DNA of 64,000 bases from Escherichia coli (GTDB lineage Bacteria; Pseudomonadota; Gammaproteobacteria; Enterobacterales; Enterobacteriaceae). Position 1 is the stretch's first letter, and every line of letters begins with the position of its first letter. The notes below the pieces were generated by a model. The model did not search any database. It was not told the DNA's origin and saw only the letters and a program-made list of their open reading frames with translations. The stretch lies in assembly GCF_024298765.1 (NCBI RefSeq), contig NZ_CP101210.1, one strand, 5' to 3'. The position numbers and the translations under genes are program-made. Of the stretch, positions 5,089-35,679 are shown in pieces.

Positions 5089-5868
5089 TTACGCCAGTTG
5101 TACGGACACGAACTCATCAGGGTCAGCCAGCAGCATCAGCGGTGCTGACTGAATCATGGTGAACTCACGCGCCGGATCGCCGGTGGTCACCCAGTTTTTC
5201 GGGTAACGGGCAGAGGCGTTAATGCCTTCGCGCTGTGCGTCCGCATCCTGAATGCAGCCATAGGTGCGCAGACCGCGTGCATGAGTGTTACCCAGCACCA
5301 TCGTGTTGTCCGGCAGGAAGTTCTTTTTGACGCCGTTTTCCACGTACTGTCCGGAATACACGACGATGGCCACATCGCCATACATCCCCTTATAGGACAC
5401 CGCTTTACCCAGGTCTTTCACCGCTGTCTCCAGCTCGGAATGAGAGCCGCGACGGGTATCCAGCTTCTCCTTGACGGCGTTGAAGGAACGGAACAGCGCC
5501 CAGCCTTTCGGATCAAACACGATGATATTCACCACGCCGCTGGCGTTCAGCGCGTAGGCTTCGATATCGTCGGTCGGGTCATACGTGGACTTGTCACGCT
5601 TGCTCCACTCCGTGCCGCCGGACTGCGTGATGTTGTTCGCCGCACTGCGGCCCATATCCACCTCAACCGGATCGAAGGCTTCACCGGTCATGGTGTATTT
5701 GCCCTTGAGCACGGCAGAAACTGCCTGCATCTCTTCGACCTGAGCAATGGCCAGCTCTTCGTCACGCATGTTCTGCAGGATGATGCGACGGCGGCGGTAA
5801 GCCGGGTCCGCCAGATTCTGCGGATCTTCATCCGGCAGGCGACGCAGGGTCATCTGCGGATTCACTTC
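5089..5868 (-). pseudogene. E: major capsid protein E, C-terminal ~258 codons, separated from its 5' part by a ~10.9 kb insertion
   Basis: ORF 5089..5865 begins EVNPQMTLRRLPDE..., i.e. lambda gpE from about residue 91; no start codon of its own. Confidence 0.9.
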
Positions 5869-5869
5869 A

Positions 5870-5879
5870 TGCTTGGGTT
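5870..5879. repeat. left junction direct repeat (att core copy) TGCTTGGGTT
   Basis: Identical 10-mer at 16754..16763; context atgcttgggtta vs gtgcttgggttt. Confidence 0.8.
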
Positions 5880-5955
5880 ACATGAGTCAAATATGAAAGG
5901 ATGTGAATGATTTGATTACGTTTTAGCTATAGAATTGAAATGGAAAATCCTTGAA

Positions 5956-5976
5956 TGCAATACAACGTGCAATACA
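5956..5976. repeat. GCAATACA direct repeats near left end (candidate arm-type integrase sites)
   Basis: tgcaatacaacgtgcaatacatgg; the same motif recurs at the right end. Confidence 0.45.
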
Positions 5977-6013
5977 TGGATGAAAACCATCACTCATTTA
6001 ACAAGAGGAATCT

Positions 6014-6919
6014 ATGCGCTCACCCAACAGAATGCATGAACGCTCAACATTTTATAAGTATATGTCGTTGAATACCGCGAAGATTGTTCTTGATTCATGC
6101 AGCCTTAGATGGAGTTCTCCGGTCCTATTTAATGACCCTTTTGATGTTCCAAGAGAAGTTATGCCTGGTATTAACGAAATTAATATTGGCAAAGCTTTAG
6201 CCCGCAAGTTAATAGCGGAGTTGATTACCCCCAGAGAAGACATACAAAATTTAAACCCTAGAATTAGAACAATGCTAAGTGATTTCCAAAAGTCATTTCC
6301 TTTAGGCATACCCGCAGGATTAATTGAAAGATTTCAAGAAATGGTAAACATTCCACCAGTTGGGATTGGCGCTCCTGCGGCAATACAAGAAATGAAAGAT
6401 ATCTGGCGAGGAATGCTTAATAACAGAAGGATTTTGTGTTTATCTGAGAGCCCTATAATCACTCCTATGTGGAATCACTATGCCGATAAATATAAAGGTA
6501 TAGTTATCGAATTTGATTGTGTAGACTTTCTGGATAGCGCTTGGTTAATAGCCAAACCTATGAAATACACAGATGAAATGCCTCTAACTCACACTGCTGA
6601 AGGGATGGCCGAGTTGCTTTTCATGCCAGACAATAAGTCAATTGAATATATCAATAATGAGATAATATTCATAAAAACAGAAGAATGGGCATATGAAAGA
6701 GAGTGGAGAATTTCAACCTACGCTAGGCCAAATAGCACTGGTCAATATAGCGACTTAAAATTTCACCCTTTTGAGTTAAAATCTGTAATACTTGGTCCTC
6801 TTTTTGATGCCAGCGAGTTCGATGAAGTCGCATCACTAGTTAAAATGTATCCAAGAGCGAAATTATTTAAAAGTTCATTTGGGAACGACAGAAAAATATC
6901 CATAGTACCACTACCTTAA
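6014..6919 (+). CDS. DUF2971-like hypothetical protein, AT-rich cargo
   Basis: 301 aa; motifs FYKY, LFNDPFD, EWAYEREWR recalled as DUF2971-like; codon usage visibly more AT-rich than neighbours; hairpin terminator follows. Confidence 0.6.
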   Translation: MRSPNRMHERSTFYKYMSLNTAKIVLDSCSLRWSSPVLFNDPFDVPREVMPGINEINIGKALARKLIAELITPREDIQNLNPRIRTMLSDFQKSFPLGIPAGLIERFQEMVNIPPVGIGAPAAIQEMKDIWRGMLNNRRILCLSESPIITPMWNHYADKYKGIVIEFDCVDFLDSAWLIAKPMKYTDEMPLTHTAEGMAELLFMPDNKSIEYINNEIIFIKTEEWAYEREWRISTYARPNSTGQYSDLKFHPFELKSVILGPLFDASEFDEVASLVKMYPRAKLFKSSFGNDRKISIVPLP

Positions 6920-7025
6920 AAGGTCAAATGCTTTTGACAAATAAAATCTATCGCCAGTTTTACTGGCGACTTTTAAGCAACAAAGAACCACCTAAGCACT
7001 CTTCCTACCTATGGTTTCATTTGTT

Positions 7026-7577
7026 TTAACTTCGCTGATTATCCTTGATATACCTTTCAGCCATATCTGGAATGTTATCTGAGATCTGGTAAGCTCGAAT
7101 AAATGCTTTACTGACCTCCATCTTAATGAAGTCCTGATACCGTTTTTCCATGCCAGGAAACTGTCGACAGATCGCAAGTGGAAGACTATCAATGATTGCT
7201 CCAACTTCCCCAGTTAATTTCGACAAGGCATAAGTCGCAAATGCAGTGTCAATTACCTCACCTGTTTCGCTGGCATTCTTCAGTTCCTGTGCGTCGGCCT
7301 GCGCACGCGTAAGTCGATGGCGTTCGTACTCAATAGTCCCTGGCTGGAGATCTGTCTCGCTGGCCTGCCGCAGTTCTTCAACTTCCCGGCGCAGCTTTTC
7401 GTTCTCAATTTCAGCATCCCTTTCGGCATACCATTTTATGACGGCGGCAGAGTCATAAAGCACCTCATTACCCTTGCCACCGCCTCGCAGAACGGGCATT
7501 CCCTGTTCCTGCCAGTTCTGAATGGTACGGATACTCGCACCGAAAATGTCAGCCAGCTGCTTTTTGTTGACTTCCAT
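7026..7577 (-). CDS. terminase small subunit Nu1-like; N-terminal ~100 aa identical to the prophage Nu1, C-terminal half divergent
   Basis: 183 aa; MEVNKKQLADIFGASIRTIQNWQEQG... identical to ORF 22397..22942 over the DNA-binding domain, then about half-identical. Confidence 0.85.
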   Translation of the reverse strand: MEVNKKQLADIFGASIRTIQNWQEQGMPVLRGGGKGNEVLYDSAAVIKWYAERDAEIENEKLRREVEELRQASETDLQPGTIEYERHRLTRAQADAQELKNASETGEVIDTAFATYALSKLTGEVGAIIDSLPLAICRQFPGMEKRYQDFIKMEVSKAFIRAYQISDNIPDMAERYIKDNQRS

Positions 7578-7599
7578 TGTTCATTCCACGGACAAAAAC

Positions 7600-7790
7600 A
7601 GAGAAAGGAAACGACAGAGGCCAAAAAGCTCGCTTTCAGCACCTGTCGTTTCCTTTCTTTTCAGGGGGTATTTTAAATAAAAACATTAAGTTACGACGAA
7701 GAAGAACGGAAACGCCTTAAACCGGAAAATTTTCATAAATAGCGAAAATCCGCGCGCCTGACGCCCCGTAGCCTGTCAGATCGCCGGAAA
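7600..7790 (-). other. cos-like site of the element: cosB conserved, cosN divergent
   Basis: Aligns base for base with prophage cos at ~22960..23150; the 12-nt cohesive-end sequence differs at 5 positions (aggtcgccgccc vs cgcctgacgccc on the + strand). Confidence 0.7.
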
Positions 7791-7822
7791 GGACCCGCCA
7801 GCCAGAGCGGGCCCTAATTTCA

Positions 7823-8206
7823 TCAACCAATCAGCTTATAGCGACCATCCCGTGCATTGCGGCGTACACGCTCAATCTTGAGGCATAGCGCCGCATCTGG
7901 CTTTTTTGGGACAGGTACGCGGCAATATTCAGAAGCGCGAGGAATATTATTTATCCAGTCGATCACTTCACTTAAATACCAGGCCTTACGCCCTTCCGTA
8001 ACCTGCACACGCTCCGGGAACTCTCCACTAGCCTCAAGGTTTAGCAGTGTACGCCGACTCAGGGTTGTAATTTCCATCACCTGATTCATATCAACAAGGC
8101 GCTCGCTTAAACACATTTTGTCAGCGATAGCTTTTAATTCCTCTACAGCTGGATTCGGGTACATCATTTCGGCAATTGGCTTAAGGTCATTGTAATCATT
8201 CTGCAT
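7823..8206 (-). CDS. AlpA-family DNA-binding protein with N-terminal extension
   Basis: 127 aa; C-terminal part (ITTLSRRTLLNLEASGEFPERVQVTEGRKAWYLSEVIDWI) resembles AlpA/excisionase-type wHTH. Confidence 0.6.
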   Translation of the reverse strand: MQNDYNDLKPIAEMMYPNPAVEELKAIADKMCLSERLVDMNQVMEITTLSRRTLLNLEASGEFPERVQVTEGRKAWYLSEVIDWINNIPRASEYCRVPVPKKPDAALCLKIERVRRNARDGRYKLIG

Positions 8207-8217
8207 TGTATCCCCCT

Positions 8218-8559
8218 TTACACACGAGCCAGCGGCTGAACAGAAATACCTGAGCCAACAAACGCTGCAATCTTTACTGACAGTTCTTTTACAGACTCAG
8301 GCCAGTTCAGAGCATCAACATTTAAGACACCTGTCTTATAGACCTGAGCCTGTGTTTTTTTCGCGGTGTCGATTTGTACAGCGGAAACATAAACCGCTTT
8401 ACCTACGCTCGAACCATCCCATACCACCAGTGCACCTGTTGCATCTTCCTGCATCAGTGGCGTAAATGCAGGAATTACCCCTTTATTAGCTGAAAATATC
8501 CCCAGCGTAGTCACCAGTGCTTCAGTGCCAGCCATGAGTTCAGTGTAATGAGTAGCCAT
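8218..8559 (-). CDS. head decoration protein, gpD family
   Basis: 113 aa; ...VVWDGSSVGKAVYVSAV...FVGSGISVQ parallels lambda gpD ...[17 protein letters not shown]...FAGTAISIV. Confidence 0.65.
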   Translation of the reverse strand: MATHYTELMAGTEALVTTLGIFSANKGVIPAFTPLMQEDATGALVVWDGSSVGKAVYVSAVQIDTAKKTQAQVYKTGVLNVDALNWPESVKELSVKIAAFVGSGISVQPLARV

Positions 8560-8568
8560 TGCTCCCCC

Positions 8569-9609
8569 TTAGCCAATGCGAACGGTAACAAAACGATTGA
8601 TGCGGGCCGGTATTGGCTGTGGTGCTGAATGTGTCTGCACATATTCAATAGCCGGATCACCAGGCACAATATAGTTTTTCGGTGCAAGTTCGGCTTTAGT
8701 CAGCCCCATTCGGATTAGCTCCGGATCCTGAATACCGCCATAGGCGACAATCCCCTGAAGAGCCGTATTGCCAAGCACCATCAAATCAGGATCAAGGAAA
8801 TGTTTTTCAGTTCCGTCCTCGTCGGTATAACGCCCGCTGTATACAACAATCGCAACATCGCCCATATACCCTTTAAAACTCACCGAATCACCAAGGTCTT
8901 TAAGGGCCGTTTCCAGTTCGGAATTAGAGCCACGACGGGTATCCAGAGCCTCTTTTATCGCTCTGAATGAACGGTATTTCTTCCATACATTACCGCCCAT
9001 AATGATGATATTAGTGACGCCCTCACTAAATTCTGCGTAGCTCTCAATATCATCATTTGGATCAAAAGTTTCTTTATCCTTACCTGACCACTCAGCACCG
9101 CCAGACTGAGTGATGATATTTTGTGGTTTAATATTCCAGTCCAGCTCATAACGTTCAATACCATCGCCCTCAATGATATTTTTCCCCGTTGTGATTGCCT
9201 GAACGGCAAGCCATTCAATACGTGCACGAATAGATTTAGCCTGATTTACAATCGCCTGTTTAACTTTAATATTACGCGCTCCAAAAGCATTGTATTGCTC
9301 AGGTGATACACCAGCAGGGCGCACAGCTAACTTATTTGGATCAATGCTGCTTTTCGGCTTCATATAGCCTGGACGAATTGTTTTTGATTCGTACCCTTCG
9401 TCACGTGAAACTTTACTACCCACCATAGGAGAACAAAACGCTGCAATTGGGATATTTGGATCGTCGATTGTATCAAGAATAATATCGCGCGATTCAAACA
9501 TTACCGAGCGAGTAAAAAACAAACTGGTAAACAACGCATTTAGTTGTTTTTGTACATCTACAGCATTAACCACCTGTACAAGCTGGGTAGGCGAATATAA
9601 ATCAACCAT
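8569..9609 (-). CDS. major capsid protein, gpE family, divergent paralog of prophage E
   Basis: ORF 8569..9783; likely start MVDLYSPTQL... after AAGAGG RBS; conserved blocks TQSGGAEWSGKDKETFDPNDDIESYA and TRRGSNSELETALKDLG match gpE. Confidence 0.8.
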   Translation of the reverse strand: MVDLYSPTQLVQVVNAVDVQKQLNALFTSLFFTRSVMFESRDIILDTIDDPNIPIAAFCSPMVGSKVSRDEGYESKTIRPGYMKPKSSIDPNKLAVRPAGVSPEQYNAFGARNIKVKQAIVNQAKSIRARIEWLAVQAITTGKNIIEGDGIERYELDWNIKPQNIITQSGGAEWSGKDKETFDPNDDIESYAEFSEGVTNIIIMGGNVWKKYRSFRAIKEALDTRRGSNSELETALKDLGDSVSFKGYMGDVAIVVYSGRYTDEDGTEKHFLDPDLMVLGNTALQGIVAYGGIQDPELIRMGLTKAELAPKNYIVPGDPAIEYVQTHSAPQPIPARINRFVTVRIG

Positions 9610-9826
9610 ACGCATCCTCTTTGCATTCATTAAAAATAATTGTGGATATATGCTATCACCGATATTTGTCATGCGAATACATGCAACCGAGTGCAATGTT
9701 GTATAAAGTTTTGGGATAACAACTTCAGCGCGGATAATTAGTGTTAATATCTTAACTCCCTTTGGTCGGGATTTATGTAGCATGCCGGAAAATTTATTTT
9801 TTTCCGGCCTTTTTTATTGGCAATAT

Positions 9827-10276
9827 TTAAAACGGAATATCATCTCCCCATTGCTCATTATCTCCCACTGGTGGATGGCTTCCTTGCTGATCTGCCTGTT
9901 GTTTTGCTCTGTTCAGTGCGTCAGTAGCCTGACCCTGTTGACCTTTTTTGCCGCCCGGTCGCACCGTTCGCGCACTGATTACGCTGTCTGCGATAACCTG
10001 CCAGCCCTGCCGCGTTTCACCGTTCTGTCCAGTCCACTGGCTCACCTGCATATTACCCGCCACGCTCAGGAGTTCGCCTTTGTGATGCTTTGCCAGCGCG
10101 TCGGCTTGTCTGCCAAACGCCAGGACAGATAACCACATCGTCGCCGTTCCGTCATCTGCCTGGCTGCATGGCAAAGATACCGCCATCCGTGCCAGTGTCA
10201 TGGGTGTTCCCTTGCTGGTATGTTTTACCTGTGGGTCGTCCACCAGCCGCCCGTAAGCTGCTATTTGCGCCGTCAT
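9827..10276 (-). CDS. SSB-like single-stranded DNA-binding protein
   Basis: 149 aa; OB-fold-like N-terminus and C-terminal acidic tail ending DDIPF, the SSB hallmark. Confidence 0.6.
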   Translation of the reverse strand: MTAQIAAYGRLVDDPQVKHTSKGTPMTLARMAVSLPCSQADDGTATMWLSVLAFGRQADALAKHHKGELLSVAGNMQVSQWTGQNGETRQGWQVIADSVISARTVRPGGKKGQQGQATDALNRAKQQADQQGSHPPVGDNEQWGDDIPF

Positions 10277-10287
10277 GCTGCCTGCTC

Positions 10288-10530
10288 TCAGGACTTAATA
10301 TTGATGGTTGTCACTTCCTCCGCTTCGGCAATCTCCCGTTCGGTCAGCGTGGCAAAGTTTGCAGCCGCCGTTGTCATGAATGCGCTTATCAGTTCGGGAT
10401 GTGCTTTCGCGTATCCTTCCCCGGCGTTGCGGTCTATTGCCTTAATCGCCACCCTTAGCCAGTGTTCAGCCATATCAAGGGCGCGGTAATGTGGCTTTAT
10501 ATGTTTGTTCAGTTTTCCTGATGTGTGCAT
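10288..10530 (-). CDS. hypothetical protein
   Basis: 80-aa ORF downstream of the iteron region, same strand as the replication genes. Confidence 0.4.
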   Translation of the reverse strand: MHTSGKLNKHIKPHYRALDMAEHWLRVAIKAIDRNAGEGYAKAHPELISAFMTTAAANFATLTEREIAEAEEVTTINIKS

Positions 10531-10569
10531 TTTTATTTTTACCCCCTCGTTTAAAAAGTTTTTTGTGCA

Positions 10570-10805
10570 CCACCACCTTGTCTACCTTGTCTACCTGATT
10601 AGTTATCAGGCCAGTAATGGCGCGGGTTTCAGGGAGGTAGACAGCCCCAAATAGCTGTCTACCTCATCTCTACCCGTCTCCTTACCTGTCTACAAAAATG
10701 GGTAGATAAGGTAGATAACAGGTAGACAGTGAAAAATAGTTATCTACCTGCATTAATGCATTGAAATAAAAGTATTTTATTTCAGTCAGGTAGACAAGGT
10801 AGATA
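10570..10805. repeat. iteron array GGTAGAYA (11 or more copies, both orientations): candidate replication origin
   Basis: ttgtctaccttgtctacc, ggtagacag, ctgtctacc, ggtagataaggtagataacaggtagacag, ttatctacc, ggtagacaaggtagataa; immediately downstream of the primase-helicase gene. Confidence 0.75.
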
Positions 10806-10819
10806 ACCATTGCCATTTT

Positions 10820-12571
10820 TTATAAAAACGCATCGCAATCATCAGTAGTCGTTGCGTTGGTCTGCGTGACTCCCTTAACTTTTCGCGTAATATATTCATA
10901 TCCGTAAACTTTCGCCGCTGACCTCATAGCCTTTCCGAACTCATTCACGCTCAAACATTTCCCCTTTCCTGTATATGCCATGAAGGCCATATAGACACGG
11001 TAAAGGCTGTTTCTGGTCGTGTACTTCACGGTGTCACCACCACCGCCCATCATTAGCCCACGAGCTTCCTCCAGAAACTCCAGCGCCGCGCAAAGCTCAA
11101 CAACCGGATCCGTTTGCTGCTTTATTGCCAGAGCTTCATCACCGTCACGCTGTTCCAGTAATAAAGCCCGTGCCTTTTCAGGGTCAGCAAAATTAGCCAG
11201 CAAGCGGCGGATAATTACGGGGATTTCTGCCGCTATCTTTTCCGGTAATTCCTTGTCTTTTTCGTCCTCCCTTACAATGTTGTCGAACCGGAAAATCACC
11301 CGACGGCGTGACACACCTCCGGCCCGTTCGGTAAAGATCATCGGGTCGTTATTGGTTGCCAGTACCACCGCCCTTATTATCGTCGTGAATCGCTTCTCAT
11401 ATTTCGGGTTAATTTCAACGGGATCGCCTCCCGTGATTTTCTTGATGCCCGTGCCTTCCCCCGTATATTTCGGCTGATCGGCAAGGACGATAAGACGACT
11501 CCCGACAACCTGCGCACGCCCTCCTGCATCATCGAGTGATGTCATCTCTGCGCTTACGGTGTTCTGTTTGCCAGCAAGCAGGGTGGCAATATGGGTAAAT
11601 GTACTCTTACCGCTTCCCCCGTCTCCGGTGGCCTCAATGAACATCTGCCAGTCGTACCGGTTCGCCATAATCATGTACAGCGCGGCACATATACGCATCA
11701 TCTTGCGCGGGTCTTTTCCGGCTGCGTGCTCAAGCCATTTATGAAAGTTTGGCGCGTTATCGCGGATGTTCTCCCCTGGTGCTGGTGGCGTGTACTCAAT
11801 GCCGTTGTGCGTGGTGATCCAGTTCTCCGGCGTGTGCGGGGAAAATTCCCCCGTTTTCAGGTCAAGCGCACCATTGGCGAACGGCAGCAAATCGCCGGAC
11901 GGCTCGCCCATTGGTTCGGCAATAACTTTTAACGCTTCAACGGCGTTATTGATCACGCGTTTGCTGAAAGTGGCCCTGTGCTCTGAATAGATCGCCACCA
12001 TTTCGCGGCTCAGCTCCATTGTGCTGATCGGACACCATACCCCGCCGCGCCATACGTGAACGATTTCACTTTCCGGATGCACACAAACGCCATCAAAGCG
12101 CTCGGCAAGCAGCTGCGCGCGCTCACTGTCTGCCATCTGTGAAAGTTGCGCCTTTTGCTTCGTCGGAAGATTAAGCACCAGGCTTTCCCCACGCTCGCAT
12201 TCCTCTTTGAGTCGCGGCAACTGGTCGGATAAATCCACTGGGCTGATGTCAGTAATCCCCGCGTATTCGTGTACGGTCTTCACTCCAGCCACAGCCAGTA
12301 ACGTAACAATCTGCGTCATGCTGTGCTCTGTGATATGTCCTGCGCGGTAAACACGCACACACTGACGATCTTCATCAATGATCCGGTAATCGGTGATGTT
12401 TTTCAGTTGCTCATCAGCCAACACGACAGGCGGCACATCGTCGGCGGCAATATGTTTACCCGCCCATTCCTGCCACTCTTTCGCATGGCTCCACGCATCA
12501 CTACCTGCAAAGATGATTATCTCTGTCAGTCTGTCGCGTGGCTGTTTTTTTAAGTTCGGTGCCAGTTTCAT
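10820..12571 (-). CDS. primase-helicase (P4 alpha / D5-type replication protein)
   Basis: 583 aa; Walker A GDGGSGKST in the C-terminal half; domain layout as in satellite and plasmid primase-helicases. Confidence 0.75.
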   Translation of the reverse strand: MKLAPNLKKQPRDRLTEIIIFAGSDAWSHAKEWQEWAGKHIAADDVPPVVLADEQLKNITDYRIIDEDRQCVRVYRAGHITEHSMTQIVTLLAVAGVKTVHEYAGITDISPVDLSDQLPRLKEECERGESLVLNLPTKQKAQLSQMADSERAQLLAERFDGVCVHPESEIVHVWRGGVWCPISTMELSREMVAIYSEHRATFSKRVINNAVEALKVIAEPMGEPSGDLLPFANGALDLKTGEFSPHTPENWITTHNGIEYTPPAPGENIRDNAPNFHKWLEHAAGKDPRKMMRICAALYMIMANRYDWQMFIEATGDGGSGKSTFTHIATLLAGKQNTVSAEMTSLDDAGGRAQVVGSRLIVLADQPKYTGEGTGIKKITGGDPVEINPKYEKRFTTIIRAVVLATNNDPMIFTERAGGVSRRRVIFRFDNIVREDEKDKELPEKIAAEIPVIIRRLLANFADPEKARALLLEQRDGDEALAIKQQTDPVVELCAALEFLEEARGLMMGGGGDTVKYTTRNSLYRVYMAFMAYTGKGKCLSVNEFGKAMRSAAKVYGYEYITRKVKGVTQTNATTTDDCDAFL

Positions 12572-12867
12572 TTTTTGCCCCTGAATGCGTTAATCATGCT
12601 TTTCATTTTCTGGATGTTTCCCCGCGCTTTTTCCCTGCTGATGGGCTTACTGCGGGGTGCGGCATATACCAGGGAAAAATCACGCCGGAACTGATAAACA
12701 GGCATCACGCAGTCATAGCTATACCCCTCACGACGGTAAGTGATGCGCCGTTCTGCCACGCCTTTAATCGTTACCGTGCCGCCGTATTTATCGCGGTAAA
12801 TATCGCCGTTCATAAATTCAGGCCGAGCGGGGCCGCTGGCAATAAAGCCAGAATTTTTCATTTCCAT
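12568..12867 (-). CDS. hypothetical protein
   Basis: 99-aa ORF, abuts the primase-helicase start. Confidence 0.4.
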   Translation of the reverse strand: MEMKNSGFIASGPARPEFMNGDIYRDKYGGTVTIKGVAERRITYRREGYSYDCVMPVYQFRRDFSLVYAAPRSKPISREKARGNIQKMKSMINAFRGKK

Positions 12868-12884
12868 ATTATTTATTCCTCGAC

Positions 12885-13106
12885 TTAACTCGACTTATTT
12901 GATAGCTGGGCACTATTTATTGCGTCATTGAGTTTTTCTGCTGCTTCATCAATAAGTGACAACAGGCCATAAGCAATATTTGCATCTTCATTGTCATTTA
13001 TGCAATCAAGCCACATATTTAATATTGCTTTTGCTGAATTATTTAAAGTTAATGAACTTTCTGCACATGCTAACAATTTAAAAAAGACTTCCCGTTCTGT
13101 ATTCAT
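12885..13106 (-). CDS. hypothetical protein
   Basis: 73-aa ORF in a tightly packed small-gene operon. Confidence 0.4.
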   Translation of the reverse strand: MNTEREVFFKLLACAESSLTLNNSAKAILNMWLDCINDNEDANIAYGLLSLIDEAAEKLNDAINSAQLSNKSS

Positions 13107-13298
13107 TTAATCCCCCACCAGCTTACTTTCTTCCTCAATCAAAAAACTAGCGACACTTCCCGAAAGACGCGCCAGTAGGCTCGCCAGTGCGGATATATCA
13201 GCATCTGTAATTTTGTTCGGGTATACCTCAAGAAGGCGGCAAATAATTTCTGTCTGGTGCGCACGTTCAGCGGCTTCGTGTAATGTGATTTCCTGCAT
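13107..13298 (-). CDS. hypothetical protein
   Basis: 63-aa ORF; its stop abuts the next ORF. Confidence 0.4.
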   Translation of the reverse strand: MQEITLHEAAERAHQTEIICRLLEVYPNKITDADISALASLLARLSGSVASFLIEEESKLVGD

Positions 13299-13483
13299 TA
13301 ATGCACCTCTTTTAATTCATACACTGCTGAAATAATGACTTGTGATAAGCCATATTCTGATGATTCGCTTCTCACCGCAGCAATAGCCGTCTGAACATTA
13401 ACAGCCTTCACATTCTGAGCGATACCAATTGTGTGGCCTATTGGGTTAACAGCTCGGGCAAATACACGGAAGGTTTTAAGCAT
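13298..13483 (-). CDS. hypothetical protein
   Basis: 61-aa ORF, first gene of the leftward operon. Confidence 0.4.
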   Translation of the reverse strand: MLKTFRVFARAVNPIGHTIGIAQNVKAVNVQTAIAAVRSESSEYGLSQVIISAVYELKEVH

Positions 13484-13863
13484 GACTCACTCCCTGGCGG
13501 ATTTTTGCAGCGAATACAGCAACACAACCGGACGGGCAACGGCTACGCGCTTCGCGTTCCGTCCAGGCGGTTACGTGGATGATTTGAGATTCTCCGGCAC
13601 TCAGTGCCAGAAAACGCCACACAAAGGCCGTTTGTGTGTGTACAAGGTGTGGTATATGATTTACAGCAACCATAACGGCTCCTAGTTTACGTTGTTGGTT
13701 AGACGCCCCGTATGTGTTCCCAGCACTGCGGGGCGTTGCTCTTTGTATTTCAACAATCCTTTCGGTGTGTTTCATGTTATGAGCGCATGAAACACACGTC
13801 AAGGCTTTTTGTATTTCTTTTTTTGTGTATACTGAAACACACCGATGATTAGGAGTTTCAGAA

Positions 13864-14169
13864 ATGGCAACGGCTAACAAAAACGCAAAATCACAACTGA
13901 CAACTGTCAGAGTCCCACTAGATGTTATGCAAGGGATGGAATCCGTTAAGCTGGACGGTGAAAGCAATGCCGGATTTATCGTAACCGCCATGCGCGGTGA
14001 AATCGCCCGCCGCCAGGCAGAAGGAAGCGGAGAAAATCCCCTCGTGTCTTCACTGGATGCCTTAGCTAAGGTCGAACAAATCGGCATCAAGGCAGCGGAG
14101 GAAATCGGGCAACTCGTAGCCGTCGCTCGTGAAGAACTCCAGCGGCGTAAAGCCAAAGAATCTGAATAA
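13864..14169 (+). CDS. putative ribbon-helix-helix transcriptional regulator
   Basis: 101 aa; AGGAG RBS; TVRVPLDVMQGMESV...NAGFIVTAMRGEI fits a beta-strand plus two helices; divergent from the small-gene operon. Confidence 0.5.
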   Translation: MATANKNAKSQLTTVRVPLDVMQGMESVKLDGESNAGFIVTAMRGEIARRQAEGSGENPLVSSLDALAKVEQIGIKAAEEIGQLVAVAREELQRRKAKESE

Positions 14170-14519
14170 TTAGTATCAGCGCCGTGATGTGAGTAACTAC
14201 GGCGCATTGCTATGTAAATACTGGCAATAAACAGAAAAGGTAGTTCTACTCCGAATAATTTTATCTGACACTACTCCTGAACTAACATGCGCTTATCTTA
14301 CAGGATATAAATATAAATCCATAAAATCACGATTAAATAAAGTCGCTCCAAACATAAACCACACCCAACGCTTAACAAGATAGCAACAAACAGGTAAATA
14401 ACTTGCAGAAATATTTATCGCAAGGATTATCATTATTAATGACAAATCACTTTACCAAGTCATTCCCCTCTCTTATCATAAAGAGAAAGTAATAAATAAG
14501 TTAAGGGAGTTAGAATGCT

Positions 14520-15056
14520 ATGAATCTAAAAAAAATAGCCACAAACACAAAAAACAAGATAACAGAAACATTTAATAAACTTATATTAGAGGCATCTAAA
14601 ACCCCCACACAAGATGAAATTAAAATACTTGAGAGAAGGAGTAAGAAGTTTAATTACTCCTTTTTCTCATACGCAGTCACAGGAGCTATAATAGTTTTTT
14701 GCTCTCAACCATTAATTAAATACGCAAACCCAATACTTATTTTATTGAGTGGTCTGTTACTGTCTATCATCATTATCATTCTCAGAATGATTTATATTTC
14801 ACAAGCGAATGCATCATGGACAACCAAAAAACGCTCACATGTACTAGTTCATTTTCTTTCTGCATGTTTCATAGCATCAACATTGACGTTGCTATATCAG
14901 GCTTACGATAATAACATCACACACAAATTGTACTGTAAAAATATACAACAACTTATTGAAAAAAGGATAAAAACAGAAAAAAACATCAGCATATTCAGTG
15001 GGATGCAATGCACCCCGGTATATGATTACTCTTTATTTGGATTTAATCTCTTATAA
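14520..15056 (+). CDS. hypothetical membrane protein, AT-rich cargo
   Basis: 178 aa; three hydrophobic segments (AVTGAIIVFCSQPLI, ILILLSGLLLSIIIIIL, VLVHFLSACFIASTLTLL); GGGAG RBS; AT-rich. Confidence 0.55.
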   Translation: MNLKKIATNTKNKITETFNKLILEASKTPTQDEIKILERRSKKFNYSFFSYAVTGAIIVFCSQPLIKYANPILILLSGLLLSIIIIILRMIYISQANASWTTKKRSHVLVHFLSACFIASTLTLLYQAYDNNITHKLYCKNIQQLIEKRIKTEKNISIFSGMQCTPVYDYSLFGFNLL

Positions 15057-15067
15057 AGAATGTTATT

Positions 15068-15101
15068 ACTGATTTGAGTACAAATTCTCAAATCAGTAAT
15101 T
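15068..15101. terminator. perfect 13-bp inverted repeat hairpin between convergent genes
   Basis: ttactgatttgag-N8-ctcaaatcagtaa. Confidence 0.5.
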
Positions 15102-15125
15102 CATAATATTTTATTCTGAGATAAT

Positions 15126-15353
15126 TTAAACTACCCACTCACCTCGAATCCATGCCTGCACTTCTGAAAGACGATATGCAACAGCAGTGGAACCAATCTT
15201 GATCCGCTTAGGAAATTTTCCTTCCTTCTCCAGCTTCCAGCGTGTGCTGTTCGCAAGAGTGGTTAGCTCCCGACATTCTTTCTCACGGATCATTCGGTCA
15301 ATGTTAGGAATGTACTCCAGACCCTTTTTATCAACAATTGCCATTTTTTTCAT
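15126..15353 (-). CDS. alpA: AlpA-family regulator/excisionase-like protein
   Basis: ORF 15126..15362; ...LTTLANSTRWKLEKEGKFPKRIKIGSTAVAYRLSEVQAWI typical of AlpA; directly follows int. Confidence 0.65.
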   Translation of the reverse strand: MKKMAIVDKKGLEYIPNIDRMIREKECRELTTLANSTRWKLEKEGKFPKRIKIGSTAVAYRLSEVQAWIRGEWVV

Positions 15354-15354
15354 G

Positions 15355-16590
15355 TTAACCAACCTTTTGTTTGAGGATTGTCACTTTTGAATCAGCACCT
15401 GCGATGCTATTGAGATATGTAGTCCAGAGTTCCAGAGCATCCAGTTTTTTAGCCATAAACTTACTCCGGTTGTAAACACCTGCCACGCCAGGTAGCGCAT
15501 GGCCTAACAGTTGTTCTACTACATAAAATTCAACACCGAGATCACTTAGATGAGTAGATAGCGTTCTTCTAAGGTCGTGTAGTGACCATTGTTTTTCATG
15601 GCCCAAACGTTTACCGATTTTCCCCCCAATCTTGCTTACGCTTTCTCTAATTCGCAGACTTCCCAGCACATAACCAGTATGTTTTGTCTCTTCGTGAACA
15701 TCCGTTACCCACTGTCGTAGAATTTCAGGTACTGGTCTGACGATTTCAACACCAGTTTTTGAGTGATCTTTTGGTACAGTCCAAACCCAACTTTCGAGAT
15801 CCCATTCGCTCCATTCTGATAATCGGGCTTCACTCATTCGACATCCAAATACTGTACAAAGCACAAACATTTTTCGCGTGTATTCAGACATTAGTTTTAA
15901 ATCAGGCTCGACAAAAATTGCCTTCCAGAGCTGGCCGAGTTCGGCTTCATCCAGAACCCGATCCCGCTTACCTGCAATCTGCCCCACATCACTCATGCGC
16001 AAATCCTTTAAAGCATCACACGTCGCGTACTGGCGTACCCGACAAAAACGAAGAGCTAATTTAGTGTCAGAAAAAACATACGCCGCCATAACTGGTGCAT
16101 TACGTTTAATTCGGTCAAAACAGTCCAGCCATTCATATAGGTGAGTGTCATTTACGGGCAAATGACCGATATAGGGAAAGATATGCTTTCGAAATCTGCC
16201 AAGCGTTACAGCATGAGTTTTACGACGCACCTTACAGTAATTTTCATACCAGTAATTTAGTGCATCCTCCACTGTAACTGGCTTTAAGCGTTCTTCAGCC
16301 TGAATCTTAATCTGGATACGCGGATCACGTTTGTCAGCCAACCAACCACGGCACTCGTCGCGCTTTTCCCTTGCCTGTTTGAGTGACATATCAGGATATT
16401 TACCCAACGTTAGCCAGACCGGAGCAGCCCGGCCACCTGCTAACCTGTAGAAGAAAACAAAGCTCACAGCCCCTTTAGTACTCACACGAATAGAAAGCCC
16501 CTTTCCATCAGCAATGGTGATCTGCTTTTCTCTGGGTTTCCCCAGATATCCTTTAAGCGCTTTGTCGCTCAGTTTGTTCTCGCCAGCCAT
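15355..16590 (-). CDS. int: tyrosine integrase, P4-like
   Basis: ORF 15355..16641; probable start MAGENKLSDKALKG...; C-terminal catalytic region with HDLRRT and GH motifs. Confidence 0.85.
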   Translation of the reverse strand: MAGENKLSDKALKGYLGKPREKQITIADGKGLSIRVSTKGAVSFVFFYRLAGGRAAPVWLTLGKYPDMSLKQAREKRDECRGWLADKRDPRIQIKIQAEERLKPVTVEDALNYWYENYCKVRRKTHAVTLGRFRKHIFPYIGHLPVNDTHLYEWLDCFDRIKRNAPVMAAYVFSDTKLALRFCRVRQYATCDALKDLRMSDVGQIAGKRDRVLDEAELGQLWKAIFVEPDLKLMSEYTRKMFVLCTVFGCRMSEARLSEWSEWDLESWVWTVPKDHSKTGVEIVRPVPEILRQWVTDVHEETKHTGYVLGSLRIRESVSKIGGKIGKRLGHEKQWSLHDLRRTLSTHLSDLGVEFYVVEQLLGHALPGVAGVYNRSKFMAKKLDALELWTTYLNSIAGADSKVTILKQKVG

Positions 16591-16605
16591 TTTTAGCCCC
16601 AAAAA

Positions 16606-16640
16606 GCAATACAAGCTGCAATACAGAGATGATTGCAACA
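16606..16640. repeat. GCAATACA repeats near right end (candidate arm-type integrase sites)
   Basis: aagcaatacaagctgcaatacagagatgattgcaacaca between int start and the right junction. Confidence 0.45.
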
Positions 16641-16752
16641 CACAGATAACGAGGAAAATTCAGTGAAAGCACCAGATAAACTTATTCTTTATTATCAAAA
16701 GATTAAGTGTAAAAACCAGCAACTACACGAAAGCCTCAGAAAGCCATGCTAA

Positions 16753-16998
16753 GTGCTTGGGTTTGACATATCCCGGCGTAAATTCAGAGGTGGAGCCGCC
16801 ACGGGAACGGATAACCTCACCGGAAACAATCGGCGAAACGTACAGCGCCATGTTTACCAGTCCCGGAATTTGTGAGAGATAGACTTTCTCCGTAGTGAAG
16901 GGATAGCTCTCACGGAAAAAGAGACGCAGAAACAGCGGATCAAACTTAAATTTCTGCTCATTTGCCGCCAGCAGCTGGGCGGTTGTGTACATCGACAT
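16753..16998 (-). pseudogene. E: major capsid protein E, N-terminal ~90 codons; frame runs into the insertion and stops at 16723
   Basis: ORF 16723..17025: MSMYTTAQLLAANEQKFKFDPLF...GYVKPKH then LAWLSEAFV* from element DNA. Confidence 0.9.
16754..16763. repeat. right junction direct repeat (att core copy) TGCTTGGGTT
   Basis: Identical 10-mer at 5870..5879. Confidence 0.8.
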
Positions 16999-17053
16999 AA
17001 AAAAATCCCGTAAAAAAAGCCGCACAGGCGGCCTTTAGTGATGAAGGGTAAAG

Positions 17054-23886: not shown

Positions 23887-24180
23887 ATGAAAAAAATGTT
23901 GTTTTCTGCCGCTCTGGCAATGCTTATTACAGGATGTGCTCAACAGACGTTTACTGTTGGAAACAAACCGACAGCAGTAACACCAAAGGAAACCATCACC
24001 CATCATTTCTTCGTTTCGGGAATTGGACAGGAGAAAACTGTTGATGCAGCCAAAATTTGTGGCGGCGCAGAAAATGTTGTTAAAACAGAAACCCAGCAAA
24101 CATTCGTAAATGGATTTCTCGGTTTTATTACTTTAGGCATTTATACTCCGCTGGAAGCGCGTGTGTATTGCTCACAATAA
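23887..24180 (+). CDS. bor: Bor lipoprotein (serum resistance)
   Basis: ORF 23839..24180; start MKKMLFSAALAMLITGCAQQTFTV... with lipobox; lambda Bor. Confidence 0.9.
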   Translation: MKKMLFSAALAMLITGCAQQTFTVGNKPTAVTPKETITHHFFVSGIGQEKTVDAAKICGGAENVVKTETQQTFVNGFLGFITLGIYTPLEARVYCSQ

Positions 24181-25954: not shown

Positions 25955-27052
25955 ATGAAAAAATTAACAGTGGCAATTTCTGCTGTAGCTGCATCAGTAC
26001 TGATGGCGATGTCTGCTCAGGCAGCTGAAATTTATAATAAAGACAGTAACAAGCTGGATCTGTACGGGAAAGTTAATGCTAAGCACTACTTCTCCTCTAA
26101 TGATGCAGATGATGGTGATACTACTTATGCCCGTCTTGGCTTCAAAGGTGAAACCCAAATCAACGATCAACTGACTGGTTTCGGTCAGTGGGAATATGAA
26201 TTCAAAGGCAACCGCGCTGAATCTCAAGGTTCCTCCAAAGATAAAACCCGTCTTGCCTTCGCTGGCCTGAAATTCGGTGACTACGGCTCCATCGATTACG
26301 GCCGTAACTACGGTGTAGCATACGACATCGGTGCGTGGACTGACGTCCTGCCAGAATTCGGTGGTGACACTTGGACTCAAACCGACGTGTTCATGACTCA
26401 ACGTGCAACTGGTGTTGCAACCTATCGTAACAACGACTTCTTTGGTCTGGTTGATGGTCTGAATTTTGCTGCTCAGTACCAAGGCAAAAACGATCGTAGC
26501 GATTTCGATAACTACACTGAAGGTAACGGTGATGGCTTCGGTTTCTCTGCTACCTATGAATACGAAGGATTCGGTATCGGTGCAACTTATGCGAAATCTG
26601 ATCGTACCGACACTCAAGTTAATGCAGGGAAAGTTCTTCCTGAAGTATTTGCTTCCGGTAAAAATGCAGAAGTTTGGGCCGCAGGTCTGAAATATGACGC
26701 TAACAACATTTACCTGGCCACTACCTATTCTGAAACCCAGAATATGACTGTATTTGCTGATCACTTCGTTGCTAATAAAGCCCAAAACTTCGAAGCTGTT
26801 GCACAATATCAGTTCGATTTCGGTCTGCGTCCGTCCGTTGCTTACCTGCAATCTAAAGGTAAGGATCTTGGAGTATGGGGCGATCAGGACTTAGTCAAAT
26901 ATGTTGATGTAGGTGCAACCTATTACTTCAACAAAAATATGTCTACTTTCGTTGATTACAAAATCAACCTGCTTGACAAAAATGACTTCACTAAAGCACT
27001 CGGTGTAAGCACTGATGACATCGTTGCTGTAGGTCTGGTTTACCAGTTCTAA
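25955..27052 (+). CDS. outer-membrane porin, OmpC/NmpC/Lc family (lysogenic-conversion gene)
   Basis: ORF 25895..27052; start [23 protein letters not shown] signal peptide; [17 protein letters not shown]... and C-terminal VGLVYQF typical of general porins; sits between Q and S on the opposite strand as in DLP12/PA-2. Confidence 0.9.
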
Positions 27053-27847: not shown

Positions 27848-28210
27848 TCATTCATTCCCCATTTCGGTGATGGTCAGTTCCAGCCTCCCACCTTTGGTAA
27901 CAGGCATCTTCACAACGCGGTAATCAACGACCTGAGCATCATCCAGCCAGAAACCTGCTTTGGTGAGTGCGTCAAAAGAGGCTTTTTGCAGATTATCCAG
28001 GTCACGGCGACGGCGATCCGGCATGTGGCACTCAATGCGGATTTTCACAGGCATAGCCAGGCCGATATCCAGCATTGCGTTTTTAATGATTCGGGCGACG
28101 TTATCGCAGTATGCCTGCCCCTCTGCGCTAACGTGCGTGCGCCCGCGATTATGGCGGTAATAGCGATTATTGCTCGGAGGCCAGGGTAATGTGATGCTGT
28201 AGGTATTCAC
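27848..28210 (-). CDS. rusA: Holliday junction resolvase RusA
   Basis: 120 aa [34 protein letters not shown]..., RusA family. Confidence 0.9.
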
Positions 28211-28229
28211 GCCTTAATAACCCCCTCTT

Positions 28230-28424
28230 TCAGCCAGATAACCTGTGTTCTCGCCATACCTTCCAGCGCGCATTCTTTTGCATATGCAGCATCGACTTGC
28301 TTGGCATGCCCTTTACCGGCAATCTTCTGTATGCGCTAAACCTAGATAGAATCCACTCTGTGCACATTGAAGCCCGCTCTATGCTTCCTTTCAGGTATTG
28401 AAGGGATTGAGATGGGCTAAGCAT
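28230..28424 (-). CDS. NinF-like ORF, N-terminus conserved, remainder divergent (possible remnant)
   Basis: [18 protein letters not shown]... matches start of lambda NinF as recalled, then loses the Cys-rich motif. Confidence 0.35.
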
Positions 28425-28800
28425 TATTGGCCTCCTGCATCAGGAGAAAGACAATCATGGCGGCGCGGAGAGGTCTGGCATCAAATATTGGGCTTACGCC
28501 TTTTGCATCCACACACCATTCAGTTAACTGGTCTAAGATAGAAATCCTGTATTTCTCAATAATCGGCCATGAAGCGCTCGGATCATTGCAGTAGTCAGGC
28601 AAATGATTTAATGGCTCAAAAGTTGTATCAGCATTTCCGTAATACCATTTGTTGGTGTTATTCCCTGATGTTTCCGGTTTACTTGCCCAAAGGCCTTTAA
28701 AAATTATGTCTCCTACCATTCTGTTAATTTCAAAATCACTTAACTGTGAATAATCCATTGTCATTTCCTCGCACGATATCTTAGCCACCGGATATCCCAC
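28417..28800 (-). CDS. nin-region hypothetical protein
   Basis: 127-aa ORF in the nin operon on the same strand as its neighbours; family not recognised. Confidence 0.5.
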
Positions 28801-28937
28801 AGGTGAGCTGTGTAATTGAAGGTTTTTACGTCAGATTCTTTTGGGATTGGCTTGCGTTTATTTCTGGAGCGTTTCGTTGGAAGGTATTTGCAGTTTTCGC
28901 AGATGATGTCGGTGAAACTTCGTCGCTGTCGCCTCAT
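28761..28937 (-). CDS. ninE: NinE
   Basis: ORF 28761..29027; internal start [58 protein letters not shown] matches lambda NinE. Confidence 0.8.
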
Positions 28938-29461
28938 GCCGCCCTCCTGACGCCCTGCCCGATCGCCATCAATGCCGCTTTGGATACGGTAGTAAACATC
29001 CGTCGAGGACTGATGAACGGTCGCCAAATCAGCAGCATGGAGCCTTTGCTGTTTCCCTTCTTCTCCAGCCCTGTCGATGGTTCGATAAAATTAATCCGTC
29101 CATCAGTGATAATGCGAACTTCGTCGACACTCTCCAGAGCCTTGCTGAACCATCCGACTGACATATCCTCTGGCACAAGCATAACTACCGTCTGTCGCTG
29201 TTGTATGCACTGCTCAGCGGCTTTTTCCACCCACGGCCTGATATTGCTGTACGGTGGGTTATTCCAGATTGCACCGTGGCTTACCCACTCAGAATTGAGC
29301 GCGTCGTCGGCCTCAGTTAGCCAGTGAGCACACAGAGCATTTTTGTCGCTCGCTGCAGAATCCAGCCAGAATCCAAACTCAATATCCAGTGCATCAAAAA
29401 GCCAAAGCGGCGTTTGCCAGCAGTCCTTGTCGTGTGCTGGCGTATTTGATTTGATAGTCAT
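28934..29461 (-). CDS. phage DNA N6-adenine methyltransferase (orphan)
   Basis: ORF 28934..29521; probable start [25 protein letters not shown]...; NPPY catalytic motif. Confidence 0.75.
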
Positions 29462-29898
29462 GCAGCCCGATCTCCCCATCTCGCTTTCCACTCCAGAGCC
29501 AGTCTCGCTTCGTCTGACCACTTAACGCCACGCTCTGTACCGAATGCCTGTATAAGCTCTAATAGCTCCGCAAATTCGCCTACACGCATCCTGCTGGTTG
29601 ACTGGCCTATTACCACAAAGCCATTCCCGGCAAGGTTAGGAACAACATCCTGCTGCTTTAATGCTGCGGTAAACACACACTTCCAGCTTTCTGCATCCAG
29701 CCAGCGACCATGCCATTCAACCTGACGAGAGACGTCACCTAAGCAGGCCCATAGCTTCCTGTTTTGGTCTAAGCTGCGGTTGCGTTCCTGAATGGTTACT
29801 ACGATTGGTTTGGTTGGGTCTGGAAGGATTTGCTGTACTGCGTGAATAGCGTTTTGCTGATGTGCTGGAGATCGAATTTCAAAGGTTAGTTTTTTCAT
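29458..29898 (-). CDS. ninB: NinB (Orf-family recombination mediator)
   Basis: ORF 29458..29916; start MKKLTFEIRSPAHQQNAIHAVQQILPDPTKP..., lambda NinB. Confidence 0.9.
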   Translation of the reverse strand: MKKLTFEIRSPAHQQNAIHAVQQILPDPTKPIVVTIQERNRSLDQNRKLWACLGDVSRQVEWHGRWLDAESWKCVFTAALKQQDVVPNLAGNGFVVIGQSTSRMRVGEFAELLELIQAFGTERGVKWSDEARLALEWKARWGDRAA

Positions 29899-29971
29899 GA
29901 CTTCCCTCTCCCCCAAATAAAAAGGCCTGCGATTACCAGCAGGCCTGTTATTAGCTCAGTGATGTAGATGG

Positions 29972-30262
29972 TCATCTTTTAACTCCATATACCGCCAATA
30001 CCCGTTTCATCGCGGCACTCTGGCGACACTCCTTAAAAATCAGGTTCGTGCTCATCTTTCCTTCCCGTTCTTCCTTGGTAGCAAACCGGTAATACACCGT
30101 TCGCCAGACCTTACCTTCGATAACCAGAAGACCTGCCCGTGCCATTTTAGCCGCGGCCTGATTTATGCTGGTTACTGTTGCGCCTGTTAGCGCGGCAACG
30201 TCCGGCGCACAGAAGCTATTATGCGTCCCCAGGTAATGAATAATTGCCTCTTTGCCCGTCAT
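29972..30262 (-). CDS. ren: Ren
   Basis: 96 aa MTGKEAIIHYLGTHNSFCAPDVAALTGATVTSINQ..., lambda Ren. Confidence 0.9.
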   Translation of the reverse strand: MTGKEAIIHYLGTHNSFCAPDVAALTGATVTSINQAAAKMARAGLLVIEGKVWRTVYYRFATKEEREGKMSTNLIFKECRQSAAMKRVLAVYGVKR

Positions 30263-32300: not shown

Positions 32301-33315
<1,015 letters not shown>

Positions 33316-33442: not shown

Positions 33443-34300
33443 ATGAAGAAAGCAGCAATTTTAATTGATGCGGGTTTTTTCATGCAGCGTGTTCATGCTA
33501 CGCATCGTAAACACTTCGCCGAGCATGAACTGACTGCGCAATGCATAATGAAAGTAATATGGTCAATGGTTCTTTCCCATCTTAATGGAAAACGTCAATC
33601 ACAAGAACGTAGGGAACCGCTTGAGCTTTATAGAATTTACTTCTATGACTGTCCACCACTCGACATTCAAACACGCCTTCCACTTCCTGAGCCTGGCAAT
33701 AAGACGCCTGGTCGCAAGAATTTCAAACTCGAAAAATCATATATTCTGAGAACGGAGCTGCATGAAGAGTTAAGAAAAACTCGAAAAACAGCCTTAAGAT
33801 TAGGGAATCTTGTTGATAATAAGCGATGGCAACTAACTACATTCTCCCTTGATGCTCTGATGAAAGGAACGAAAAAATGGGATGAACTGACAAATGATGA
33901 TTTTTACTATGACATCAAACAAAAACAAGTTGATATCAAGCTAGGGATGGATATCACGACTTTAGCTTATGAAAAACTTGTTGATGTAATTGTCCTTGTT
34001 GCTGGGGACTCAGACTTTGTGCCTGCCGCCAAACACGCCAGAATTAAAGGTATTGATTTTATTCTTGATCCACTAAGACAGAATGTTACCCCATCACTGT
34101 CAGAGCACATTGATGGAGTTCAGTCATACAGCTTGATATCAGGACTTGCCGATGCTTTACATGTTGAGCCAGACCCGGCACCTGACTGGTGGGAAGATCG
34201 AAAAAAAGGCAAGCCTAGGGGAAAAAACAATAGCGGTAAACGCAGGTATGGAAACACTCAAGCTGAGTCTGCAAAGAAACATCAAAGAAATAAACGATAA
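33443..34300 (+). CDS. NYN-domain (LabA-like, PIN-like) putative nuclease occupying the rexA-rexB position
   Basis: 285 aa; MKKAAILIDAGFF... and VIVLVAGDSDFVPA motifs typical of NYN domains; basic C-terminal tail; downstream of cI on the same strand; not similar to RexA or RexB. Confidence 0.6.
   Translation: MKKAAILIDAGFFMQRVHATHRKHFAEHELTAQCIMKVIWSMVLSHLNGKRQSQERREPLELYRIYFYDCPPLDIQTRLPLPEPGNKTPGRKNFKLEKSYILRTELHEELRKTRKTALRLGNLVDNKRWQLTTFSLDALMKGTKKWDELTNDDFYYDIKQKQVDIKLGMDITTLAYEKLVDVIVLVAGDSDFVPAAKHARIKGIDFILDPLRQNVTPSLSEHIDGVQSYSLISGLADALHVEPDPAPDWWEDRKKGKPRGKNNSGKRRYGNTQAESAKKHQRNKR

Positions 34301-34781: not shown

Positions 34782-35679
<898 letters not shown>

Follow-up and report, generated by a model that had tools for sequence, protein, structure and literature searches.

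The closest described relative of the gene treated here is orf32 of the Stx2 phage VT2-Sakai (NP_050531.1), which encodes M.EcoVT2Dam and lies between ninB and ninE. In a passage of PMC6602927, M.EcoVT2Dam is referred to as an orphan methyltransferase "known to target 5'-GATC-3'", and in a passage of PMC7556043 it is counted among the phage Dam-like enzymes, both passages citing Radlinska & Bujnicki 2001. The GATC specificity given in these passages is a secondary citation of an experiment that included cloning and over-expression (Acta Microbiol Pol 2001). Over-produced Dam-like enzymes may methylate off-target, a caution expressed in PMC10810198.

Also the MT-A70-type enzyme of Stx phages (M.EcoGV / M.EcoPA8orf6770P) is carried by prophages as an orphan, under the annotation of a GATC "Dam homologue". 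It methylates GATC if over-produced, its true role being the methylation of 16S rRNA together with a partner subunit (PMC10810198). This enzyme differs from the gene product treated here in having the motif DPPW, in belonging to another family, in being encoded by gene gp5 near the integrase end, in needing a partner, and in preferring 16S rRNA.

In a STEC strain with two 99%-identical methyltransferase copies, the methylated motifs were GATC, CTGCAG, and CRARCAG. GATC and CTGCAG match methyltransferases of known specificity, CRARCAG was attributed by the authors to a Type IIG enzyme, and no motif was ascribed to the two copies.

The window, i.e. the whole stretch of 64,000 nucleotides of the Escherichia coli contig NZ_CP101210.1 that was analyzed, includes a lambda-like prophage in the chromosome, adjoining ybhC on the lambda attB side. 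The methyltransferase encoded in its nin region is identical to VT2-Sakai orf32, i.e. to M.EcoVT2Dam, at 175 of 175 residues, and the two alleles are separated by six synonymous and no non-synonymous differences. The carrier differs from VT2-Sakai in being a non-Stx prophage of the lambda-immunity type at lambda attB, and it has lambda-like O, P, ren, and ninB as well as rusA and a DLP12-type Q. Through the complete identity to M.EcoVT2Dam, and as far as the passages cited above report it, the predicted target of the enzyme is the adenine in GATC. As M.EcoVT2Dam has already been characterised, the specificity needs no prediction of its own. The gene is thus already known: a real, intact, ordinary, and previously characterised prophage DNA adenine methyltransferase gene that is annotated in RefSeq.

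The methyltransferase gene and its place in the nin region

The gene, its catalytic motif, and its immediate neighbours are located as follows.

28934..29461, minus strand: coding sequence of the phage N6-adenine methyltransferase, 175 aa plus stop (translation; PF05869; TIGR01712; PHROG 111; PADLOC oMTase)
29249..29260, minus strand: codons N68-P69-P70-Y71, catalytic motif IV (position computed; conservation in 55 diverse homologues)
29458..29898, minus strand: ninB (orf), recombination mediator, directly upstream (PF05772, 2.3e-54; RefSeq proxy; about 98% identical to lambda)
28761..28937, minus strand: ninE, directly downstream (PF05322, 3.4e-42; RefSeq proxy)
29458..29461, minus strand: ATGA overlap of the ninB stop TGA and the methyltransferase start ATG (read from the sequence; identity to lambda ends here)
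28934..28937, minus strand: ATGA overlap of the methyltransferase stop TGA and the ninE start ATG (read from the sequence; similarity to lambda ninE resumes just after)

The start codon ATG (29461-29459) and the stop codon TGA (28936-28934) were read from the window sequence. The list of open reading frames also included an alternative form of 195 aa starting from GTG (28934-29521). The start of the 175-aa form was preferred because the profiles begin at its residue 2-4, the homologues share the same start, and the RefSeq gene is 528 nt long. A preliminary description of this DNA had placed a protein of approximately 175 aa at 28934-29461, between ninB and ninE. This interval proved to be the exact coding sequence including the stop codon, on the minus strand, which had been left unstated, and the neighbours were confirmed by the PF05772 match upstream and the PF05322 match downstream.

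The protein matched the Pfam family PF05869, "DNA N-6-adenine-methyltransferase (Dam)", with an E-value of 6.4e-65 and 218.4 bits (cut-off 28.1), residues 4-169 aligning with profile positions 1-167 of 169. The NCBIfam equivalog TIGR01712, "phage N-6-adenine-methyltransferase", was matched as well (9.7e-80, 265.9 bits, cut-off 97.05). PHROG 111 and the PADLOC "orphan methyltransferase" models were also matched, the latter being the best of the PADLOC matches. Membership in PF05869/TIGR01712, as predicted from the profile scores, is far beyond chance. The same description had called the product an N6-adenine DNA methyltransferase and had suggested a profile search to classify it; the full-length matches to these two families agree with that identity and name the family.

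Among 55 diverse homologues, N68 and P70 were invariant and P69 and Y71 were at least 90% conserved. The window protein has every one of the family-invariant residues T17, D34, N68, P70, R122, and F125, the near-invariant residues P18, A37, N137, and S141 are likewise kept, and the TP, D-x-x-A, and NPPY motifs of the family were all found. The NPPY catalytic motif noted earlier is accordingly intact, at residues 68-71, and with every family-invariant residue in place it is not degenerate. Members of the family have a single domain of about 165-185 aa with no separate target-recognition domain and occur in phages or prophages; the window protein has 175 aa and is encoded in the nin region of a lambdoid prophage. 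The family comprises 8784 sequence clusters at E ≤ 0.001, and homologues, distant ones included, were found in 1908 phage records. PF05869/TIGR01712 also takes in Dam of phage T1 and Dam of phage HP1. Family members from T1-like phages share approximately 30-35% identity with the window methyltransferase.

At a nucleotide identity of at least 95%, the methyltransferase gene was present in 244 phage records, plaque-forming phages among them, and in 1565 of the 5426 complete E. coli genomes (approximately 29%), where the RefSeq label is "phage N-6-adenine-methyltransferase". HK544, Sf101, and mEp506 are examples of plaque-forming carriers. The pN/pS ratios among five alleles ranged from 0.00 to 0.13, and the alleles are clearly under purifying selection. 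The low ratios, together with the presence of all the conserved residues, show a gene maintained by selection and not a decaying remnant.

The prophage is about 98% identical to lambda over the end of ren, the terminator, and ninB, and this identity stops exactly at the ninB stop and the following start codon. The similarity restarts within ninE (regions 29440-29990 and 28740-28990 compared), so that the mosaic boundaries coincide with gene junctions. Lambda has the unrelated genes ninC and ninD at this place between ninB and ninE, NinC being annotated as PAPS-reductase-like. With the likeness to lambda interrupted from the ninB stop to ninE, the methyltransferase gene is a mosaic cassette replacing ninC and ninD. 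ATGA stop/start overlaps have been described as characteristic of the nin regions in lambdoid genomes (PMC8022706).

The open reading frames from ren to Q all belong to families of the nin region (ninB, ninE, ninX, rusA, and Q), and the order ninB–methyltransferase–ninE was repeated among the phage and genome matches listed. The window is covered in full by near-identical RefSeq proxies, in which no restriction endonuclease was annotated, in agreement with the earlier remark that no restriction enzyme lies nearby. With an ATGA overlap at either end of the gene, a partner could not be accommodated next to it, and this, together with the lack of an annotated endonuclease in these proxies, identifies the methyltransferase as an orphan.

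Other features of the prophage

A truncated pseudogene of the DUF1364 (ybcO-like) type is present at 28207-28296, between rusA and ninX. The late-region genes near Q (genes at 23887-24180 and 25955-27052) include iss, encoding the increased serum survival lipoprotein, and an OmpC/NmpC-like porin gene on the strand opposite to Q; both are genes of the lysogenic-conversion type.

The lambda-E-type major capsid gene of the prophage is interrupted by an island of approximately 11 kb (5870-16763). Pfam searches recovered the capsid gene in two pieces, 5089-5877 (Phage_cap_E positions 94-328) and 16754-16999 (positions 1-77), and a 10-bp direct repeat, TGCTTGGGTT, borders the island on either side (5870-5879 and 16754-16763). 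Its genes include an integrase, AlpA-like regulators, a D5-type primase, and an SSB, and it also carries an E-like capsid gene of its own, a D-like decoration gene, and an intact Nu1-like small terminase gene. The helper-embedded PICI "11capE" has been described from the site E:Phage_cap_E:80 with a 10-bp identity block (PMC10111431), and the island matches this published type, being already known in that respect.

At the cargo end of the island, the window has a DUF2971 gene together with the Nu1-like terminase gene (6161-7577). In strain 104, the same place (L002 5601-7317) is occupied by a DUF262 gene (PADLOC NsnA / PD-T4-2_A-like, 6e-59) and a HEPN gene. The variable cargo end looks like a hotspot of defence or accessory genes. 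The DUF262 and HEPN genes of strain 104 were considered as restriction-like neighbours of the methyltransferase and set aside, the window having other cargo there. Also the island cargo genes were rejected as methyltransferase partners, the island being a separate mobile element approximately 12-23 kb away.

Short repeats are clustered within the island at 10635-10807, just downstream of the primase gene. They consist of a 30-nt pair at 10635 and 10720 and of GGTAGAYAAGGTAGATAAC at 10701 and 10789. PICI replication origins are located downstream of pri (PMC10111431), and the repeats are probably the iterons of the replication origin of the island.

Expression and proposed role

The elements bearing on the expression of the methyltransferase gene are the following.

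29923..29946, minus strand: intrinsic terminator between ren and ninB (terminator scan; identical to the lambda stretch there)
32526..32554, minus strand: pR-like promoter TTGACT-17 nt-GATAAT, with the lambda pR hexamers, upstream of cro (promoter scan)
32602..33315, plus strand: cI-type (LexA family) repressor (RefSeq proxy, L001 26603-27316 + 5999)
34782..35105, plus strand: antiterminator N gene (RefSeq proxy "antitermination protein N", L001 28783-29106 + 5999)

The pR-like promoter lies approximately 3.1 kb upstream of the methyltransferase gene and is followed on the same strand by cro, cII, O, P, and ren. It would be the source of the transcript reaching the methyltransferase gene. The terminator, which we take to be lambda tR2, would be read through only with the help of N, by analogy with lambda, and the cI-type repressor would keep pR off in the lysogen. 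The interval between cI and N (33443-34300) contains a truncated hypothetical gene and a gene with an NYN domain, and corresponds to the position of rexAB in lambda.

In lambda, a gene situated behind pR and tR2 is silent in the lysogen and is transcribed after induction through N-antiterminated read-through. By the same arrangement, the methyltransferase gene should be a gene of the lytic cycle and is expected to be off in the lysogen. The CM2/dam gene of phi24B, whose product is 100% identical to NP_050531.1, showed expression linked to the lytic cycle after induction with norfloxacin (PMC3342100), and this pattern agrees with the expectation derived from lambda.

The reading that best joins these observations, and that is very probably correct as a whole, is that of a GATC methyltransferase of the M.EcoVT2Dam type, expressed as a delayed-early gene and topping up host Dam on phage DNA. 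The enzyme would be a small single-domain SAM-dependent DNA N6-adenine methyltransferase, a phage-type "Dam". After loss of the repressor, the pR transcript, carried past tR2 through antitermination by N, would reach ninB, the methyltransferase gene, and ninE, and the translation of these three would be coupled through the ATGA overlaps. The enzyme would then methylate GATC on the fast-replicating phage DNA, host DNA being methylated only incidentally. Where host Dam is limiting, the packaged genomes would in this way become fully methylated at GATC. A likely benefit would be protection in the next host from methylation-sensitive restriction enzymes cutting at GATC (MboI/DpnII type), and another the escape from host processes acting on un- or hemimethylated GATC (MutH, SeqA).

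The virion DNA of lambda and P22 is described in the literature as under-methylated, and a GATC methylase that the phage itself supplied in the lytic cycle would make good this deficit. We infer the top-up role and its benefit; in a passage of PMC7556043, what phage Dam enzymes do is called "still not well understood". In the prophage arm, GATC was mildly under-represented, with 70 sites observed against 99-115 expected, counts that speak neither for nor against a role related to restriction.

Some alternatives to this role have to be considered. The native activity in the lytic phase might extend beyond that of host Dam, through relaxed specificity or action on single-stranded or recombination intermediates, the enzyme then being more than a duplicate of Dam; this is distinctly unlikely. 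Being without a target-recognition domain, the protein might be capable of such relaxed or single-strand action, and if it were so, its function would be tied to that of ninB and rusA, the recombination genes flanking it, or to the evasion of a defence system.

A related alternative, and a very unlikely one, holds that the substrate or specificity in vivo is something other than the GATC duplex (a relaxed target, single-stranded intermediates, or RNA), methylation of GATC being a by-product of over-expression. A precedent is offered by the MT-A70 prophage "Dam homologue", which was found to methylate 16S rRNA together with a partner (PMC10810198), and the location of the gene among the recombination genes ninB and rusA would suit such a role. 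The precedent comes, however, from another family (DPPW versus NPPY, the window protein matching PF05869 only) and from another genome position. Furthermore, the window methyltransferase has no neighbour specific to it that could serve as a partner, as lambda has ninB and ninE without it, and TIGR01712 is curated as a DNA methyltransferase equivalog. Neither does the structural likeness to the cap methyltransferase PCIF1 point to RNA, several DNA m6A enzymes scoring almost equally in the comparison.

That the gene is a redundant passenger, a mosaic nin cassette making no contribution in a Dam+ host and residing in a prophage with an interrupted capsid gene, is highly unlikely. Methylation of GATC is already provided by host Dam, lambda can do without its nin region (PMC8022706), the corresponding slot in lambda is filled by other genes (ninC and ninD), and the capsid gene of this prophage is split by the inserted island. 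The purifying selection (pN/pS 0-0.13), however, argues against a gene without a contribution, as does the intact frame with a product identical to an active enzyme. The gene has also been kept in the 244 phage records, plaque-forming ones included, and in the 1565 genomes, its family is large (8784 clusters at E ≤ 0.001), and the interruption of the capsid gene is of a known reversible kind (PMC10111431).

The chance that the gene supplies the methylase of a restriction-modification system with an overlooked endonuclease is practically negligible, and the Type II reading was rejected as effectively refuted: its support consists of weak PADLOC matches to Type II methyltransferase models (4e-07 and 1e-05), while the overlaps with ninB and ninE leave no intergenic space, the ren-to-Q frames are all of nin-region families with no endonuclease annotated across the whole window, and the gene order was constant among the phage and genome matches listed.

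For the preferred reading, that of a lytic-cycle GATC methyltransferase supplementing host Dam, the enzyme looks redundant in a host already having Dam. Of the two functions offered in the preliminary description, a change of host methylation patterns is the less likely one. It had also proposed comparing the methylomes of the lysogen and a cured strain, with the failure of a new motif to appear counting against the identification. As GATC is shared with host Dam and the gene would be repressed in the lysogen, no new motif is expected from this comparison, and its absence therefore cannot refute the identification, which makes the comparison uninformative in this respect. For the interpretation of E. 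coli methylomes, the prophage enzyme is expected to be invisible, having the motif of Dam and being expressed in the lytic cycle. The discovery value of the locus is small, the gene being annotated in RefSeq, catalogued as M.EcoVT2Dam, and common in E. coli.

Comparison with other adenine methyltransferases

The AlphaFold model, constructed with the 55-sequence alignment, showed one alpha/beta domain (pLDDT 95.1, pTM 0.91). No relative was found in the PDB by the sequence search or by the profile search with the 55 sequences. Two matches of the PDB searches were dismissed as chance: SdiA, and the Mediator subunit Med31, which has a coincidental "WCNPPYS" string.

Altogether 132-146 residues of the model superposed on the catalytic domains of larger enzymes. 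These include the gamma-class M.TaqI, the type I HsdM, MmeI, M.BseCI, and CamA, as well as the cap methyltransferase PCIF1, all with 11-17% identity. Unlike the 175-aa window protein, they have large additional domains for the recognition of DNA or RNA. By the model, the window enzyme consists of a gamma-like catalytic core alone, to which no separate target-recognition domain is attached. In the model, a conserved hairpin at residues 120-141 (GR..F...GN.KGS) is a candidate for the element reading GATC.

The possibility that the window gene is the 16S rRNA methyltransferase gene of Stx prophages (PMC10810198) was rejected, the latter encoding an MT-A70/DPPW protein elsewhere in the prophage. 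The Pfam scan gave no MT-A70 match for the window protein, and its motif is NPPY and not DPPW. Also the Hia5-type non-specific adenine methyltransferases were rejected as a group for this enzyme, as they have the motifs DPPY and FxGxG and a divergent recognition region. The text of the paper on the Hia5-type enzymes mentions neither VT2, HP1, T1Dam, nor PF05869.

The classical Dam profile of the alpha class gave no match, the Pfam scan at E ≤ 0.01 having recovered PF05869 only, and E. coli Dam, T4 Dam, and DpnM were not recovered by the PDB sequence and profile searches. In structural comparison, approximately 105-110 residues of these three classical Dam enzymes superposed on the model, at 8-10% identity. 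Classical Dam has an inserted DNA-recognition domain, whereas the window enzyme is without it and is approximately 100 residues shorter. The motif of alpha-class Dam is DPPY, and that of the window enzyme NPPY. The window enzyme would thus be Dam-like in its action but stands outside the classical alpha-class Dam family.
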